Source: Chiloscyllium plagiosum
Lineage: Eukaryota
NCBI RefSeq assembly: GCF_004010195.1
Contig: NC_057756.1
Span: 7,067,095-7,094,618 of the forward strand
Direction: 5' to 3'
Length of the DNA: 27,524 nucleotides
Position 1 is the stretch's first letter; the number at the start of each line of letters is the position of its first letter. Made by a program: the position numbers and the translations under genes. Positions 3,536 to 27,524 of the stretch are shown here, piece by piece. The notes under the pieces are model-generated. The model worked only from the letters and a program-made list of their open reading frames with translations. It ran no database searches and was not told the origin of the DNA.

Positions 3536-3834
3536 ATCTTGAAATGGTTTCAGGGTATTGTTAGAGTTTCTGACGTTGATTCTAATCTTGGACCCAGAAG
3601 CAGCAAGAAGCCTTTCTTTCTCTCTTTTTAAGCAGTTTCCATTATTGTCTCAAAAATGTTCATTCTCTCTGGTCCTGTTAAATCCGAGGGAGACAACCCT
3701 GGGTTTGGGTCATTTCCCTCCCTCCCCAATCACCCCTTGCTCTCCAGCTATCATTCTGGTGAAGCTGTACTGCAGTCAGATACACACACACTCCCCAACT
3801 CCCCACTCTTTCTTGCCTTTCCCTATTTGTAACA

Positions 3835-5745
3835 AGAGAGACAGTGTGCGTGAACACGAGAGAGAGTATGTGCACAAGAGGAACAATGTGCGCAAGAGTG
3901 AGAGAGAGAAAGATAGAGAGTGTGTGTGTGGCGAAAGAGAGAGTGTGCATGTGAATGCAGGAGAGAGAGAGTGTGCGCGTGAACATGAGAGAGTGTGCAG
4001 GAATGCACAGGACAGAGTGTGCATGATTGTGTGTGTGAGAGAGAGAGAGTGGGCGTGTTAACCCAAGAGAGAGTGTGTGTGCAAATGTGAGAAAAAGAGT
4101 ATTCATGCGAATGTGTGAGAGAGAGTGCGCCCATGACTGCGAGAGAGGAAGTGTGTGTGAATGCGAGAGAGAGAATGTGCGCAAAAATGAGGAGAGTGTT
4201 TGCGAACCTAAGAGAGTGTGCATGACTGTGAGAGAGAGTGTGCAAAAATGCAAGAGAGAGAGAGCGAGGGTGTGTGCAAATGCGAGAGAGACTGTGCGTG
4301 AACGTCAGAGAGAGAGAGAGTGCGCACAAATGCAAGAGACTGTGTGTGCGAACGCAAGAGAGAGATTTAGTATGTGCGCAAGAGGAACAATGTGTGCATG
4401 TGTGAGACAGAAAGATAGTGTGTTTCAGTGTGCGAGAGTGAGGGAGAGTGTTTGAGCACGAGAGTGTGTGTAAGTGTGAGAGTGTGTGCATACGCAAGAG
4501 AGAGAATGTGCGTGAATGCCAGTGAGTGAGTGTGTGTGAAAGCAAGAGTGATTGTACACTAACGTGAGAGAGTGTGCAGAACACCTAAGAGAGAGTGTGC
4601 ATGAAAGTGAACGCGTGCACGAGAGAGAGTACGCGCGTGAATGTGAGAGAGAGTGCGCGCTAATGCAAGAGAGAGACTTTATGCAAACACGAGGAGAGTT
4701 TGCGCAAATGTGAGAGAGAATGTACGCAAATGTGAGAAAGAGTGCGCAAACATCAGAGACAGAGTGTGCGCAATGCAAGAGTGACAGTGTGAATGAATGT
4801 GCGAGAGACAGGGAATTTGAAGGAGAGTGTGTAAAAGTAAGAGCGTGTACGCAAACACGTGAGAGAGAGAGAGTGTGCACAAATGCAAGAGAATGTGTGC
4901 AAATACGAGGAGAGAGTTTGTGCAAAAACAAGAGAGTGTGTGCAAATGCGAGAGAGTGTGCGTGAACACGTGAGAGTGCGAGTGAACACGAGAGAGTGCA
5001 TGAACGCGAGAGTGCATGCACATGCAAGAGTGCGCACAAACGTAAGACAGTGTGTGTGCGAATGCAAGAGAAAGAGTGCATGAACACGAGAGAGAGTGAA
5101 TGTGTGTGCAAGAGGAACAATGTGTGCATGAGTGAGGGATAGAAAGAGAGAGTGTGAGAGTATGCACGAATGTGAGACAGAGCGTGCGTGAATGCGAAAG
5201 AGAGTGAGTGTGTAAATGTGAGAGAGAGTGCGCGTGAAGATGGGAGAGAGAATGTGCGCACATGCTAGAAAGTGTGTGCACAAATGCACATGAGAGTGAG
5301 AGAGTGCGCAAACGTGAGAGAGAGAGACAGTAGGAAGGAGAGAGTGTGTAAAAGCAAGAGTGTGTAGGCAAACATTGAGAGAGAATGTGTACAAACACAA
5401 GAGAGAATGTCGCGAACGTGAGAGTGTGTGTGCAAATGCGAGAGAGTGTGTGCGAACTCATAAGTAAACACAAGAGTGTGCGTGAACGTGAGAAAGTGTA
5501 CGCATGCACGCAAGAGAGAATGTGCACGAATGCAAGAGAGAGAGTGTGCATGAACATGAGAGAGTGCCTGAGTGAATGCGCAAGGTAGAGTGTGTGTGAA
5601 TGTGAGATCAAGTGGGCTTGTGAATGCGAGAGTGAGCATGTGAATGTGAGAGTGTGAGTGAGCGCAAGAGAGAGTGAGTGTGCACAAAAGCAAGAAAGAG
5701 AGTGTGCGCTAATACGAGAGAGACAGAGACTGTATGCAAACGTGA
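3835..5745. repeat. ~1.9-kb (GA)n/(GT)n compound minisatellite-like low-complexity tract
   Basis: Many ~20-24-bp variants of GAGAGAGAGTGTGCGCAAATGC. These generate the spurious H/T/L/S-rich and C/V/R/E-rich ORFs. Confidence 0.9.
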
Positions 5746-5752
5746 CACTGAT

Positions 5753-5837
5753 AAAGGATGATCAGCCATGATCATATTGAATGGTGGTGCAGGCTCGAAG
5801 GGCAGAATGGCCTACTCCTGCACCTATTATCTATTGT
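5753..5837 (+). mobile_element. CR1-type LINE 3' tail
   Basis: gatcagccatgatcatattgaatggtggtgcaggctcgaagggcagaatggcctactcctgcacctatt. Confidence 0.7.
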
Positions 5838-11765: not shown

Positions 11766-12039
11766 AATCTGAACAATGTGACAGCCTTGTGAAGTTTACA
11801 AGGGATTTGGTGTCCCACAGTGTCACTAACACCTGAAGGGAGCTGTGGCGTGGGTAAGGCTTTCACTAAGAAACCCGTGGGATCTGTCTTGACAACATCT
11901 CCTATCATGTGACTTATCTGTTACTTGTGTTTGCCTCATGTTAGTTTTGATAATGTAGAACTTGTAACATGGCAATCTTTCCTTTTGTGTGTTTCTCAAG
12001 GAAGTAATCTCAGATTTTTTTTCCAGGGGACTAATATAC

Positions 12040-14362
12040 AAGCAGGGAGTCAGCGAGAAATTGAGAAGCAAATCTGTCAGGAGATGTGTTATCTGTAAGA
12101 ATTATAGGGTAGTTATGGTAGGGGATTTTAATTTTCCAAACATAGACTGGGACTGCCAAAGTGTTAAGGGTTTCAATGGAGAGGAATTTGTTAAGAGTGT
12201 ACAAGAAAATTTTGTGATTCAACATCTGGATGTACCTACTGGACAAGCTGCAAAGCTTGACCTCCTCTTGAGAAATAAGGCAGGGCAGGTGATTGGTGTC
12301 AGTGGGGGAGCGCAATGGGGCCAGTGACTATAAATCTGTACATTTTCAAATAACTTAGTGATGGAAAAGGATAGACCGCATCTAAATTGAAGGATGGCCA
12401 ATTTTGATGGTATGATGCAAGAACTTTGAACCGTTGAGTGGGAGCAGATTTTCGGAGGTATAAGGACAGCTGGAAAATGAGAAGCCTTCAAAAATGAGAG
12501 AACAAGAGACCAAGGACAGTATATTCCCATTCAGGTGAAATGCAAGGCTAGTTGGTGTAGCGAGTGCTGGATGACTAGAGAAATTGAGTTTTTGCTGAAG
12601 GAAAAGTAATAAATATGTGTCGGGTACAAACAGCAGTGATCGAGTCAATCCTTAAGAGTATAAAGGCTGTAGAGTATACTTATGAAGGAAATCAGGAGGG
12701 CAAAAAGGGGACATGAGATAGCTGTGGCAAATAAGGTTGAGAATCCAAAGGGACTTTTAAAATATATTAAGGACAAAAGGGTAGTGAGAGAGAGAACAGG
12801 GCCCCTTCAAGATCAGCAAGAGAGCCTATGTGTGAAACCACAGGAGTTGGGGAGATGCTAAATGAGTATTTTGCATCGGTGTTTACTGTGGAGAGGGACG
12901 TGGAAAATATAGAATATGGGGAAATAGATGGTGACATTTTGAAAAATGTTCATATTAGAGAGGAGGAGTTGCTGGATGTTTTAAAATGCATAAAATTGGG
13001 GAAATCCCCAGGCCCTGATCAGGTGTACCTTAGAACTCTGTGCAATACTAGGCATGTGATTGCTGGGCCCTTTGCTGAGGTATTTGGATCACTAGTAGTC
13101 ACAGGTGAGATGGGGGAAGATTGGAGATTGGCTAACATGCCACTATTTCAGACAGGTGATAAGGAAAAGCCAGGGAACTTTCCACCAATGAGCCTGACAT
13201 CGGTGGTGGGCAAGTGTTTAAGGATTCCTGAGGGACAGGATTTACATGCATTTGGAAACACAAGGACTGATTAAGAATAGTCAACAGGGCTTTGTACATG
13301 GGAAGTAATATCTCACGAATTTAATTGTTTTTCTTTTGGAATAAGTAATGAAGAGGATTGATAGCAGAGCGGTGGCTGTGATCTATGTGGATTTCAGTAA
13401 GGCATTTTTCAAGGTTCCTCATGGGAGACTGGTTAGCAAGGTTTGATCTCATATAATACAGGGAGAATTGGCCATTTGGATACAGTGCTGGCTTGAAGGT
13501 GGAAGACAGAGGGTAGTGGTGGAGGGTTGCTTTTCAGATTGGAGGCCTGTGACCAGTGCTGTGCTGGAAGGATTGGTGCTGGGTTCACCACTTTTCATCA
13601 TTTATATAACTCATTTGGATGTGAACACACTAAGAATAGTTAGTAAGTTTGCAGATGACACCAAAATTGGAGGTGTCGTGGACAATAACAAAGGTTACCT
13701 CTGAGAACGATGGGGTCTTGATCAGATGGACCAATGGGCTGAGGAATGGCAGGTGGAGTTTAATTTAGATAAATGTGAGGTGCTGAATTTTATGAAGGCA
13801 AATCAGGGCAGGACTTGTACATTTAATGGTAAGTCCTCGGGTGTGTTGCTGAATAAAGAGACCTTCGAGTGCAGCTTCTTAGTTCTTTGAAAGTAGAGTT
13901 GCAGGTACATAGGATAGTGAAGATGTTTGGTAAACTTGCCTTTACTGGTCAGAACATTGCATATAGGAGTTGGGAGGTCATGTTGTGGCCGTACAGGACA
14001 TTGGTTAAGCCACATTTGGAATATTGTTGGAGGATTTGAGCTACCGAAAGAGGCTGAATAGGCTGGGGCTGTTTTCCTTGGAATTTTGGAGGCTGAGGGG
14101 TGATCTTATAGAGGTTTATAAAATCATATGGGGCATGAATAGGGTAAATAGACAAGGTCTTTTCCCTGCGTTGGAAGAGTCCAGAGCTAGAGGACATAGG
14201 TTTAGGATGAAAGGGTTAACAATTAAAAGGGACCTAAAGGGCAACTTTTTTAGGCAGAGGGTAGTGTGTGTATGGAATGAGCTGCCAGAGGAAGTGATGG
14301 AGGCTGGTAGAATTACAACATTCAAAAGCCATCTGGATGGGTATATGAATAGAAAGGATTTA
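12040..14362 (+). mobile_element. CR1 LINE ORF2 remnant (APE endonuclease C-terminus + reverse transcriptase), frameshifted and internally deleted
   Basis: VVMVGDFNFPNIDW and LDLLL (endonuclease); KSPGPDQV, WRLAN, SLTSVVGK, DFSKAF, SKFADDTKIGG (RT); VWNELPEEV. Many stops and frameshifts. PHLEYC joins directly to LEDLSY near 14027. Confidence 0.95.
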
Positions 14363-14853
14363 GAGTGTGCTGGCTGGATTGCTGTGCAGACTGATGCCAA
14401 CAGCACCATTTCAATCCCTGTCCCAACCCTGCTTATTCAGACAGGTCTAACTCCCAGTGTTCAGCCAAATACTGATGTGGAGTGAGCTCCTTATTTCTGA
14501 TTTGTTTTCCCTCTCTCAGATAGAGAGACAGCTATGGTCCCTTCAAGGGGCTACAGCTGTTCTTTGATAATGTCAAATGATACGGGGGTTTTGTTGGTTG
14601 AGTGAAAACAAAAATGAAAAGAGCAAATTAAGAAATTATTGTAAACCATTTGAGGTAAGGTCAAAACTTCATCAAAGTATCAACAACTGGATGATATTCG
14701 TGATCATTGATGCTTTATTAAGAGAATGGAAGAACAAGTTGAAGCAAGAAGAGCAACGTTCAGACTGACATTAACAGAACGACATTTGCTGTGGAGATTT
14801 TGAATTAAACTCTTCAGATACAACAGGGACAGGTGGGACTTGAACTGAGTTGC
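14363..14853 (-). repeat. Inverted duplication copy 1 (contains a putative - strand 3' terminal exon starting at 14788, AATAAA at 14714-14719)
   Basis: Reverse complement of ~20495-20990. About 7 mismatches across 14598-14853; clearly more diverged across 14363-14570. Confidence 0.9.
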
Positions 14854-16869: not shown

Positions 16870-17000
16870 CCATTGGCTGTGACCACAGAGGAATTTTCCA
16901 GAAAATTGTGTTATTTTGTTTCACAAGTAATTTGACAGGAATGCTGAGGTCATTTGAGATGTGTGTAACATCACAAGTCATGGTTCTGTCTCAATATAAA
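16870..17000 (+). promoter_or_regulatory. Putative Pol II promoter: TATAAA (16995-17000), reverse CCAAT box (16870-16878), RUNX-like GACCACA (16881-16887), kB-like GGAATTTTCC (16890-16899), MARE/CRE-like TGCTGAGGTCA (16942-16952)
   Basis: Motifs read directly in non-repeat DNA. The TATA box lies ~125 nt upstream of a Kozak-context ATG (acaATG), with no intervening ATG. The short motifs could be chance matches. Confidence 0.55.
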
Positions 17001-17123: not shown

Positions 17124-17172
17124 ATGAAGTTGGTTCTTGCTTTCACCATTATCTGCTTGTGCATTGCTCACG
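17124..17172 (+). CDS. First coding exon of a secreted protein: signal peptide MKLVLAFTIICLCIAH + G, phase-1 donor (possibly Ly6/three-finger family)
   Basis: M-K-hydrophobic core of 16 codons plus 1 nt, a consensus donor G|GTAAGT at 17173, an upstream TATA box and a T-rich intron start. The family is inferred only from the nearby LU motif. Confidence 0.75.
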
Positions 17173-17214: not shown

Positions 17215-17308
17215 TGTTGAACTCAATCCTCAGAAGTGTCCAACAAGTAGTTTGTTGAACTCAATCCTCAGTTACCCCCAAAGACACTGAAGTGTCCAAC
17301 AAGTAGTT
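17215..17308. repeat. Two-copy 38-bp tandem duplication with an 18-bp indel
   Basis: tgttgaactcaatcctcag+aagtgtccaacaagtagtt occurs twice; copy 2 has ttacccccaaagacactg between the halves. Confidence 0.9.
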
Positions 17309-19731: not shown

Positions 19732-20101
19732 NNNNNNNNNNNNNNNNNNNNNNNNNNNNNNNNNNNNNNNNNNNNNNNNNNNNNNNNNNNNNNNNNNNNN
19801 NNNNNNNNNNNNNNNNNNNNNNNNNNNNNNNNNNNNNNNNNNNNNNNNNNNNNNNNNNNNNNNNNNNNNNNNNNNNNNNNNNNNNNNNNNNNNNNNNNNN
19901 NNNNNNNNNNNNNNNNNNNNNNNNNNNNNNNNNNNNNNNNNNNNNNNNNNNNNNNNNNNNNNNNNNNNNNNNNNNNNNNNNNNNNNNNNNNNNNNNNNNN
20001 NNNNNNNNNNNNNNNNNNNNNNNNNNNNNNNNNNNNNNNNNNNNNNNNNNNNNNNNNNNNNNNNNNNNNNNNNNNNNNNNNNNNNNNNNNNNNNNNNNNN
20101 N
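19732..20101. other. Assembly gap
   Basis: Run of N. Confidence 0.99.
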
Positions 20102-20494
20102 CATTGCTGGGTTGGGACAGCTAGGCTCTTGGAAGGAGCAATGCAAAGCTGGATTTGTTTCTAACTCTTTTAATTGGCTGTGCAACTGTCTTAATGTAAC
20201 AATTATAATCTACATGTATTAATGCAATCTATAAGGGGGATGAGGTGTATTCTGGCTTCAACTGTGTATTGATCTGGATGGCAGAACCTTCAGTAATATT
20301 GTCATGCCTTATAAACCGACTTGTAGCAACTTAAAGCCATAATGAGATCGGCAGACCTGCAGGAGCTGTGTGACATCACTGTGATAGTGGGCAGGTAAAC
20401 CCTGTTCACATTGACATACCAGGGAGTGGGCACGAGTGCCTCAGCTGTGCGGTGAAATGTCCACAGATTACTGAAATGGATAGACTCAGGGAAA

Positions 20495-21245: not shown

Positions 21246-21461
21246 CTGGTGGTATTAGCATTGGACTGTTAATTCAGAGACCCAGATAATGTTCCGGGCA
21301 CCGAAGTTTGAATCTCCACCAAGGCTGATGGTGGAATTTTAACTCCAGATTTAAAAAAAAAGCATTCAAATTCCACCATCAGCCATGGTGGAGATTCAAA
21401 CTTCGGTCCCCGGAACATTATCTGGGTCTTTGAATTAACAGTCCAATGGTAATACCACCAG
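21246..21461. mobile_element. Fold-back pair of tRNA-SINE 5' heads
   Basis: ~90-bp inverted arms (ctggtggtatta...gatggtggaattt / aaattccaccatc...taataccaccag) with a few mismatches, around a short A-rich spacer. Confidence 0.8.
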
Positions 21462-23805: not shown

Positions 23806-23987
23806 TCGAAATGTTGATTTCAGTCTGATTCTGCTTTATGGTTCCCTCCTTTGCAGAGATCACGTGTGTTAGTCTGACTTAGTGCTACAGAAAATTTCAT
23901 TGTAAAGAGAGGGAAATATTTTGGTGTAGTCAATTGTTTTCTTTACATGTTGGAAGATTATTGGCAGTGATTCATTATACTTTACAG

Positions 23988-24053
23988 GAAAAGTTCCCAC
24001 GCAATCAAAATGTAGCAGGAGTTGGGAAATAAAAGTGCTCCACTTAATTTCAG
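23988..24053 (+). CDS. Candidate 66-nt internal exon, (G)KVPTQSKCSRSWEIKVLHLIS
   Basis: Acceptor ttcattatactttacag| and donor CAG|GTGAGA. Only the phase-1 frame is open, matching the 17124-17172 exon. No family motif recognised. Confidence 0.3.
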
Positions 24054-24378
24054 GTGAGATTTTATTTCTAAATTTTTAATGCAGTGTTAGAGATTGTGTC
24101 ACTTCATTGAAAAATCTATTGAGCTGTTCAAGTCATGTAGTGGAAAATTGGTCCTGATAATATCAATGTTCACAGCAATATTTCAATTAACACAACTGCC
24201 AGGATAGAAAGAGACATCCCATTATCTGTGATAAAACAAATACATTGAGTAGTATTTTGAAAGTAGTGAATATGAACAAAACTCTGAAATGTAAAACAAA
24301 AATGACAATGGCAATAATATAGCAAGATTAAAATTAGTTTTACACTGTAAAGACTTTGTAAATATATATGTCAAACAC

Positions 24379-24600
24379 TGCTGAAAATGTGTTGCTGGAA
24401 CAGCGCAGCAGGTCAGGCAGCATCCAGGGAACAGGAGAATCGACGTTTCAGGCATAAGCCCTTCTTCAGGATTCCTGAAGAAGGGCTTATGCCCGAAACG
24501 TCGATTCTCCTGTTCCCTGGATGCTGCCTGACCTGCTGCGCTGTTCCAGCAACACATTTTCAGCTCTGATCTCCAGCATCTGCCGACCTCACTTTCTCCT
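24379..24600. mobile_element. Young Penelope pseudo-LTR palindromic insertion with target-site duplication
   Basis: 92-bp arms (24380-24471 / 24473-24564) with a single mismatch. Flanking direct repeat (t)atatgtcaaacac at 24365-24378 and 24600-24613. Confidence 0.85.
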
Positions 24601-24795
24601 ATATGTCAAACACAACTTGACAATGATCCATAGATGAAATTAGCATAGATCATCTAACACTTGAAACAATTAGTTTTAAGGGAGTAAGTCCAGAGAATCC
24701 TAGTGATGCTCAGCAGGCCTGACAGCCTTGTTGGAGACAGAAACAGAGTGTAACTTTGAGTCCAATATGATTCTCCTTTGGAACTCGATAAAATG

Positions 24796-25454
24796 TGTGA
24801 GATACTGTGGCTTGAAGAGGTGTGTTTTGTGTTGGTTTGTTTTAGACAGAGAGATTGGGGGACAGGTGCCAAGTAGCCTCTGAGAAGATAAACAAATTAT
24901 GAGGGCTTGGGTTTATTTTTTAAGTAATTTGGAACAAGAGAAACAGCCTAAGTGGGTGCCATCAAGCTCTCACAGATCCAGGATTTTTAATTAGCTTTCA
25001 GCTGATGTTGCTGAGGTATCAGCAGGGTTGGAGCGCAGTGAATCTCTCCTGCCTGCTACACTCTCTCCTTGAGTTTTCTGTCAGAATTGTCTTTTGATGT
25101 TCTTTCCTCCTGGATTGGAGATCTGCATGTGAGACAATCCTATTTTCTGAACTTGCCTATTGTGAAGGGTTTGTTGATGGGATCTTGCTATATTGGAACA
25201 GTTACTGTTTAGTACTAAAATAATCAATTGTTCTGTTAAGTTTTCCAACACATTTGTTATTCTAAGTTCCTCTTTCTTTTGTTGTATTTTAATGGTAGTG
25301 TTTGAATGATTTGTGTTTCGCTTAACATCGAGTAGTTTGACCAATCGAATTGCATCTGGAACACAACACCTCACATTTACGTTTAAAATTAGAAAATGTT
25401 AGGTTCTCAGCTACCTTTAATATATTTTGAGGGGGTACAGTGTGGTCCATAACA
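24796..25454 (+). mobile_element. Probable solo LTR (Gypsy-like)
   Basis: ~660 bp starting TGTGAGAT and ending CATAACA, non-coding. Resembles a shark LTR family from memory. No clean TSD (aatg vs atgg). Confidence 0.55.
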
Positions 25455-25929
25455 ATGGGACATCTTGAAGAAATGAAGCAGAGCTGCAGAGATTTAAGCA
25501 CAGATTTCCAAAGATGAAACCAGGTAATATAAGGTATGACAGTCAAGGGCACAGCAGTTGAAATCAGGGATGCTGAACAGGCCAGAATTAGAAATGAACA
25601 TAAATTGGAGATATTTACAGGAAGTAGGCCAACCGCAAAAACAAAATAAAGAAAGGGATGAGGAAGGGGAATGGATGAATTGGAAAGGAAAGGTGAGAAT
25701 TTCAAAGCTAAGGATTTGTCCAATGGTATGAACATGAAGGACAAAAAGTACCATCCTGTCAGTAATGTAATGAACATTTAGTATATTGCTGCCAATAAAT
25801 ATTTAATTTCCTTATATGCAGAGCTTAAAACACAGTATGCAATCTGTGGTCTCACCAAAGCTTCATTTGATTATAACCTAACACATTTCCTCTTCTGCTT
25901 CAAATCTCTAACAATGTGGCAGAAGGCAA

Positions 25930-26290
25930 TAGGAGGAACAACACCTCATCTTTCACCTGGGCAGCCTACAACCCAGAAGACTCAACATTGAGTTCTCCAA
26001 TTTCAAATGACCTCCCTTCCCATCACTGACCCCCTTCCTAGCCCTCCCTTCCACTTCTCCTTGCCACTAACCGGATTCATTCTTCCCATTGACCAACCAG
26101 GTCATACCCTCCACTTGCCTTCACCTATCCCGACTAAATCACCCTATCCCTGCCACCCCCTTTATCTGCAGCTCCCCCTACACCTACCCACAGTCCTGAG
26201 AATGGTCACATTCGAAACATCAACTTCTCTACCACCTGAAGCTGCCTGGCTTGCTGTGTTGTTCCAGCTTCCTGCCTGTCTACACTGTCA
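25930..26290 (+). mobile_element. Penelope 3' fragment (GIY-YIG C-terminus + pseudo-LTR)
   Basis: Translates EEQHLIFHLGSLQPRRLNIEFSNFK-stop, then a C-rich tract, a decayed cctgagaa..cgaaacatc core and gctgcctggcttgctgtgttgttccagc. Confidence 0.75.
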
Positions 26291-26941
26291 CTTATTGACA
26301 AGTATTGGCCTCTGATTATTCAATGTCTCAATTTTAAATATCTAATTTTCAAATCTCCAAATGGACGCGCATCTCCATTTTGCAATAATCACCTCGAGCT
26401 CCATAATTGTTCAATTTTCTCTGCTCCTCAGATCTTAACCTCTAGTATATCATGACAATCTCATATATACACCAAGATAATTTCCCCTAACCAGTGCAAA
26501 TATATTGTTCATGTTTATTTGATCAGATCGTCTTATTGTCTTTCATATCTCCCGGACTTCTGTCTTGTGAATAAATGAATTCCAAATTCAGTAATCTTTC
26601 CTAACACATATAATATCACAAGGTATTATTCACTTTGCTCAATTCTTTGCGTTTTTTCATCCAGTTTGGAGAGCAAAGCTTTTCATTGTACGTCACCTAA
26701 TTTAATATATGGTTTTTGTATTATAATTTGATATGTCTGAAATTGAATTCTAGATCCAAGATTTATTTTGTGATTTGAGTAAACTCTGCTGCAACTCCTG
26801 GTGATTTCTTTATCTCTGCCCTCAATGGATTTGCTTTCCAAACGTAATGTCAATAGATCTGCCAGCTAATCAACACTGTGAAGATTTAGAGCATACCTGC
26901 CTTGGAATCTGCACCACATATCTGTGCCCAGTATGCTTACC

Positions 26942-27019
26942 TCAAAGAGTGGTGCTTGTATTACACAGGTTTCTGTTACAACAGATGGGTTTCGTGTTAC
27001 TCAGCAACCCTGGAATAGT
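26942..27019 (-). CDS. Last coding exon fragment of a Ly6/uPAR (three-finger) protein, TIPGLLSNTKPICCNRNLCNTSTTL*, truncated upstream by a Penelope element (possibly pseudogenised)
   Basis: Manual minus-strand translation gives the CCxxxLCN LU-domain terminal motif, then TGA at 26944-26942. AATAAA lies on the - strand at 26767-26762. No GPI-type hydrophobic tail. Confidence 0.6.
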   Translation of the reverse strand, partial: TIPGLLSNTKPICCNRNLCNTSTTL

Positions 27020-27480
27020 TGCTGTGATTCTGTTCGCCGAGCTGGAAGTTTTTGTTGCAAACGTTTCGTCCCCTGTCTAGGTGACATCCTCAGTGCTTGG
27101 GAGCCTCCTGTGAAGCGCTTCTGTGGTGTTTCCTCCGGCATTTATAGTGGCCTGTCCCTGTCGCTTCCGGTTGTCAGTTTCAGCTGTCCGCTGTAGGGGC
27201 CGGTATATTGGGTCCAGGTCTATGTGTTTGTTGATGGAATTTGTGGATGAGTGCCATGCTTCTAAGAATTCCCTGGCTGTTCTTTGTTTCGCTTGCCCTA
27301 TAATGGTAGTGTTGTCCCAGTCAAATTCATGTTGCTAGTAGCCACACACGCAGACGACAAGCAACATGAATTCGACTGGGACAACACTACCATTATAGGG
27401 CAAGCCAAACAAAGAACAGCCAGGGAATTCCTAGAAGCATGGCACTCATCCACAAACTCCATCAACAAACACATAGACCT
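27018..27480. mobile_element. Penelope element: - strand 3' end/pseudo-LTR plus an inverted + strand GIY-YIG fragment
   Basis: + ORF HADDKQHEFDWDNTTIIGQAKQRTAREFLEAWHSSTNSINKHIDL. ~120-bp inverted arms at 27217-27337 / 27360-27480. Terminus ttctgttcgccgagctggaagtttttgttgcaaacgtttcgtccc. Confidence 0.85.
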
Positions 27481-27524
27481 AGAGGGTGGTGCGTGTATGG
27501 AATGAGCTGCCAGAGGAAGTGGTG
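27481..27524 (+). mobile_element. CR1 ORF2 C-terminal fragment
   Basis: agagggtggtgcgtgtatggaatgagctgccagaggaagtggtg (RVVRVWNELPEEVV). Confidence 0.8.

Follow-up and report, generated by a model that had tools for sequence, protein, structure and literature searches.

At the right-hand end of the window (the whole 27,524-nt stretch of Chiloscyllium plagiosum DNA analyzed here, contig NC_057756.1), the minus strand carries, in its own reading direction, the 3' part of a Penelope-like retroelement (27020..27483), the remnant of what appears to be an LU-type (Ly6/three-finger) exon (26941..27019), a splice donor (26934..26940), and, farther on, a candidate last exon that begins at 24225 and reaches at least to 24061. 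On the plus strand lie a signal-peptide-like first exon (17124..17172) and an exon-2-like piece (20423..20494).

The LU-type fragment and its splice donor

From 27019 to 26945 the minus strand encodes TIPGLLSNTKPICCNRNLCNTSTTL, followed by an in-frame TGA at 26944-26942; the translation of 26942-27019 as TIPGLLSNTKPICCNRNLCNTSTTL* in the preliminary description is thus confirmed. The 25 codons end in CCNRNLCN-TSTTL, and 26941 would be the last base of the exon. CCNRNLCN has the form of the terminal LU motif, CC-x(3-5)-CN with asparagine after the tenth cysteine, so that the LU-type C-terminal motif described earlier also stands. Three cysteines are left in the fragment, where an LU domain has 8-10 in 60-90 residues. 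Neither of the remaining frames was retained, since each contains stops; one of them reads VTRNPSVVTETCVIQAPLFE at a phase-0 donor and lacks a good acceptor.

In a second individual of the same species (run X2), one contig covering 26387-27047, with a sole difference at 26545, carries the identical stop and the identical junction with the insert, so neither is an assembly error. A contig from run X4, with three differences, stops at 26964, short of the insert junction.

The pattern CCxxxxCN occurs once in the six frames of the window. By itself it is weak evidence, because windows simulated with an order-3 Markov model of this one contained the bare motif in 8% of 300 cases and in 106 of 1000 in a second set. 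The narrower CCxxx[LM]CN was found in 2 of 300, and a CC..CN motif with a phase-1 AG/GTRAG donor within 15 codons in 0 of 1000, a test that is post hoc, having been devised after the donor had been noticed. These figures bear on the reading of the fragment as a chance motif in noncoding DNA, which is favored by the frequency of the bare motif, by the many windows read in the scan, and by the lack of a database match anywhere. The joint rarity of motif and donor argues against it, as do the candidate tail exon and the signal-peptide-like exon nearby, and we regard such a coincidence as unlikely.

The donor, GAG/GTAAGCA (exon/intron), lies on the minus strand 1 nt past the stop and is in phase 1 in the CC..CN frame; the window holds 11 AG/GTRAG sites on its two strands, in about 52.5 kb. 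LU exon sets are generally bounded by phase-1 introns (PMC6600238; PMC8417595), and the donor at 26941 would supply, at the level of sequence, that boundary on the 3' side. A donor in the phase expected for an LU module makes the piece look like a genuine exon, but an internal rather than a terminal one. The archetypal Ly6 layout, with the GPI signal inside exon 3, is not seen here: the donor interrupts the reading six codons past the CN, and the GPI-signal-like tail is 2715 nt off. Nor does the piece have the form of a terminal CC..CN exon with stop and 3' UTR, as in secreted LU genes, given the consensus donor behind the stop. The preliminary description, which had overlooked this donor, called the piece a terminal exon without a GPI tail; with the donor in place and a GPI-signal-like exon at 24225, that designation is not supported.

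What would survive of it is the view that the element split a genuine terminal exon, belonging to a three-finger gene whose product was secreted from the start, with donor and tail both due to chance. The stop, which is no assembly error, does stand five codons past the CN asparagine, as in secreted LU proteins. In terminal exons, however, the stop is not typically followed by a donor, whereas here there is a consensus donor in the expected phase; moreover, there is a candidate tail exon, and RNA ends at its acceptor (see “The candidate anchor exon and its RNA”). Such a terminal exon is very improbable.

Database comparison, proposed with the preliminary description as the check on LU membership, gave no LU match in Pfam (fragment at 20, 25, 43, or 44 residues), the PDB sequences, or the protein collections, all insensitive for 25 residues. 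Protein word searches at 26-86 and 87-2000 residues returned two candidates without a score and then none. The sole HMMER match among 1.84 billion proteins (P0001), a 56-residue pomegranate tandem repeat with 6/14 identity, was rejected as an artifact. The best Atlas neighbor scored 0.76 and is unnamed; a pattern search of JGI metagenomes and a search of Rfam each gave 0 matches. Fragments of 20-25 residues from a fast-evolving family likely fall under the sensitivity of such searches, but the word content of an annotated orthologue that is nearly identical should have sufficed for detection. Since no sequence match was found, it is the motif and the gene anatomy that point to LU membership. 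In the literature, three motifs of the fragment and one of the signal exon are absent from nine supplements of PMC6337849, and a search that most subscription journals lay outside turned up no publication about a Ly6 cluster in sharks or about a separate GPI exon; one table row in PMC10707392 lists a UPAR/Ly6 fragment among shark skin proteins.

The candidate anchor exon and its RNA

If the donor at 26941 were joined to 24225, the intron would measure 2715 nt. The acceptor, TTTGTTTTATCACAG/A at 24226/24225 on the minus strand, is T-rich, and an AATAAA stands at 24066-24061. In phase 1 the candidate exon reads NGMSLSILAVVLIEILL* (24223-24170), a 17-residue tail resembling a GPI signal; the mean Kyte-Doolittle hydropathy of its last 12 residues is 2.88, against 1.67 for phase 0, and phase 2 stops at once. 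Read on from the LU-type exon, the tail would close 24 positions past the CN asparagine, a usual length for a GPI signal. From sequence alone the tail exon is not significant, because short hydrophobic phase-1 tails arose by chance at 3 of 153 acceptor-like sites in a scan and because the 24226/24225 acceptor, with 13 of 20 pyrimidines, falls under that scan's cutoff of 14.

Reads of 4 of the 24 listed runs were compared with 23900-27120; X21 is a single-cell RNA run, of which about 2% was read. Its depth is 0.94 in the bin 24116-24223 and 0.02 in the bin 24224-24331, in one orientation only. This equals 101-102 plus 2 bases, the equivalent of roughly a single read, and the coverage ends on 24225, where the exon is predicted to begin. 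The first mate is on the plus strand over the tail exon, which in most stranded libraries indicates minus-strand RNA. Depth is zero in the unique intron bins 26384-26923 (at low power), the bin of the LU-type exon is swamped by element-derived reads, and a joint to 26941 is absent among the X21 joints listed, each of which has at least three reads. In a related species the tail-exon contig shows 9 differences in 424 positions and no gaps, and three intron contigs together show 62 in 1589 (Poisson P 0.03; Fisher P 0.10), which suggests at most slight constraint on the tail exon.

With its CC-x4-CN end, the asparagine after the last cysteine, and, farther downstream, a candidate hydrophobic signal whose length would fit, the locus resembles the GPI-anchored single-LU Ly6 genes (CD59, LY6E, PSCA, LYNX1, and teleost Bouncer). 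It differs from them in that the GPI signal would stand on its own exon, an in-frame stop precedes the tail, and cysteines 1-8 are missing from the window. The separate GPI exon is atypical, since in typical LU genes the GPI signal lies in the same exon as CC..CN, exon 3 (PMC6600238, Fig. 1 legend).

The fragment could instead have been an internal exon of a multi-LU (PINLYP/uPAR-like) or TGF-beta-receptor-like gene, with the later exons lost or elsewhere and the tail at 24225 incidental. A phase-1 intron shortly past the CN is indeed a likeness to the multi-LU genes (uPAR, LYPD3, PINLYP), and the TGF-beta receptor ectodomains have one as well. PMC6600238 and PMC8417595 give this as the layout of multi-LU genes, and two-LU proteins are reported from cartilaginous fish in PMC6337849. 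In contrast to either group, however, neither another LU domain nor a transmembrane-plus-kinase exon nor any Pfam match was found past the fragment. At the curated Pfam cutoff, no family was found among 103 cysteine-bearing ORFs above 15900 or 75 further minus-strand ORFs, and hence no second LU domain, kinase, or receptor exon among these 178; the scan covered DNA that is not self-repeated and, on the plus strand, ORFs above 15900 with at least two cysteines. The one extended cysteine-pattern match in the window lies inside a simple repeat, and RNA coverage stops at the 24225 acceptor. An origin of this kind is distinctly unlikely.

The Penelope-like insertion at the exon edge

Self-BLAST shows an inverted duplication with 91% identity at 27213-27483 in the minus-strand insert (27020..27483), which also contains, at 27334-27080, a short remnant of an endonuclease-like ORF with stops. 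The copy number of the insert is very high, the summed contig depth at 27032-27120 exceeding 1 million. No Pfam match was found for its ORF and no match in a phage BLAST of the insert; Atlas neighbors of the ORF carry GIY-YIG on 11-17% of members (score 0.84), which is a lead only. Inverted-repeat structures have been described for Penelope-like elements (PMC3846280), and the insert shares this inverted structure and the very high copy number with Penelope-like elements that carry GIY-YIG; the GIY-YIG-like neighbors would fit as well. It is unlike full elements in being a short 3' remnant with stops. The second arm is cut off by a fragment of another repeat (27481..27524, strand not assigned), presumably CR1/LINE, which has eight further matches in the window. 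The element's far junction, with any duplication of the target site, falls outside the window. RNA of the family is strand biased in X21 at 27032-27120 (depth 185.6 versus 25.4, the endonuclease-like ORF being on the favored strand); these reads derive from all copies of the element, not from the copy at 27020 alone.

The insertion is lineage specific: two individuals of this species carry it, whereas the single run compared from a relative does not show it. In that run (X12, a related species), a 1256-nt contig aligns with 26254-27019 over its first 761 letters and then diverges, continuing for 495 nt of unique sequence unlike the element. The site is thus an empty site, or at least holds other sequence, in the one run of a relative compared. 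The contig differs from the window at 34 positions; among the 21 listed, none lies past 26912. The word share at the stop codon in the relative was 0.24 observed, against 0.26-0.39 before gaps are counted. The Penelope-like insertion that had been proposed at the 5' edge of the exon is thereby borne out. Penelope-like sequence does adjoin the exon as described, its first base being 27020, not about 27018.

Whether the element entered the exon or the intron before it turns on the few codons next to the junction. The 12 codons before the CC contain no cysteine, so cysteines 1-8 must have been encoded upstream of the insert. A possible acceptor, TATTCCAG/G at 27009..27019 on the minus strand, would begin at 27009 an exon of exactly 69 nt (23 codons), in phase 1 at either end, and the insert would then lie 10 nt before it; the alternative is that these bases encode the residues TIP. 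The 20 positions upstream of 27010/27009 hold 10 pyrimidines, a low count because the insert occupies that stretch. If coding, TIPG would make a plausible loop-3 turn, and the insert would lie inside the exon, with cysteines 1-8 removed. The intron within LU domains is normally at the tip of loop 2 (PMC6600238), which favors a split exon over an intronic insert. A position inside the exon is thus the most likely one, an intronic position 10 nt upstream being also possible.

An intronic insert is the starting point for regarding the locus as a live gene for a secreted protein, in which the stop drops the anchor from an intact 69-nt exon at 27009-26941. Nonsense-mediated decay follows a 50-nt rule, and a stop 1 nt before the last junction would escape it, the old GPI exon becoming 3' UTR. 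The exact 23-codon exon that TATTCCAG/G yields fits this account, as do the same stop in the second individual and a tail exon that appears spliced. A stop before the anchor is, moreover, the route proposed for secreted LY6 and three-finger toxin genes (3FTx) in PMC10421932. Nevertheless, the intron would sit at loop 3 and not at its usual place in loop 2, with the insert in place, pyrimidines make up 10 of the 20 bases before the acceptor, the protein collections yielded no record, and RNA is near zero in the sole RNA run compared. We consider a live secreted gene quite improbable.

A proposed course from anchored Ly6 gene to damaged locus, and the rest of the window

The explanation we prefer, with about an even chance of being right, is that the fragment is the tail end of a Ly6-type gene that a stop and an insertion have damaged and whose product was GPI anchored, the anchor being encoded on an exon of its own. 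The fragment would be the second-to-last exon of a minus-strand, single-domain gene of Ly6/uPAR type. It would end at the phase-1 donor and encode the final strand of the three-finger domain together with its CC-x4-CN loop. The signal for GPI attachment would have sat, along with the 3' UTR, on a small final exon at 24225. Two kinds of damage may then be distinguished: the in-frame TGA one base before the donor would cut off the anchor, and the Penelope-like element, arriving after the split from the related species, would have replaced everything upstream of 27019, most likely by landing inside the exon and removing the earlier cysteines. Function would thereby be lost; some low-level transcription and splicing may persist at the locus, probably with no folded protein as the product.

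If this damaged-gene reading is right, it matters little in itself, as transposon damage is routine, and PMC10421932 describes pseudogenes and orphan exons as common in Ly6 clusters. What it would add is a shark LU locus, apparently not annotated so far, in which the GPI exon is separate, an atypical arrangement, and the insertion can be dated by its presence in this species and its absence in one relative.

A different sequence of events, to which we give a small chance, is that a shark Ly6 gene has been caught in mid-change from anchored to secreted, a single stop dropping the anchor and the insert being intronic or later. The shark frame resembles secreted LU proteins (SLURP1, PATE, and snake three-finger toxins) in ending five codons past the CN asparagine, and 3FTx and LY6K have been proposed to arise by just such a stop ahead of the anchor (PMC10421932). 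It is unlike them in that donor and anchor exon are still present; the model for snake three-finger toxins involves a duplicated exon 3, and nothing at the shark locus points to toxin or venom-like expression. Were it true, the change would parallel, in cartilaginous fish, the step from which SLURPs and the three-finger toxins of snakes have been proposed to originate, and the exon thrown away in the process could still be seen. Should the stop predate the insertion and the gene be expressed, the locus would show cleanly, in nature, how one stop codon can remove the anchor, a step that has been inferred, not observed, for secreted three-finger proteins.

The preliminary description had also placed the fragment in a gene cluster. 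A signal exon and a CxxC...C piece do exist, which lends weak support to a second, also damaged, gene; they are on the opposite strand from the fragment, and a signal-peptide exon of the fragment's own gene would be expected past 27524. The signal-peptide-like first exon (17124..17172, plus strand) reads MKLVLAFTIICLCIAH, ends in a phase-1 donor G/GTAAGT, has a TATAA at 16995, and is probably part of that second gene; a word search found no homologue of it. The exon-2-like piece (20423..20494, plus strand), SGHECLSCAVKCPQ..., has a weak phase-1 acceptor and three cysteines in a CxxC...C pattern, starts like an LU exon 2, and runs into a duplicated segment; no Pfam match was found for it. A gap of N's (19732-20101) lies between the two, and no matching CC..CN exon is seen on the plus strand for either.

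An inverted pair, 14364-14853 (plus) and 20989-20495 (minus), brackets these two pieces. Its identity follows a gradient, from 168/232 through 40/44 to 209/212 over the inner 212 bases, and an inversion or a gene conversion is possible. Both copies have a donor-like site, TTTGAG/GTAAGG, and about 24 bases are inverted in one of them, as judged by eye. Also by eye, a short direct duplication is visible at 17231-17303 around gaagtgtccaacaagtagtt and gttgaactcaatcctcag, in the intron just past the signal exon.

Elsewhere in the window, 11950-14360 contains decayed fragments with endonuclease- and reverse-transcriptase-like readings, which we take to be LINE-like; many short copies of the same 3' end are scattered across the window. 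About 2 kb at 3830-5760 is a degenerate simple repeat of (GA/GT)n type, with strong skew and long spurious ORFs. Palindromes occur at 21246-21461 (89% over 217 nt) and at 24380-24564 (98% over 185 nt), the latter built of a very high-copy, transcribed repeat.
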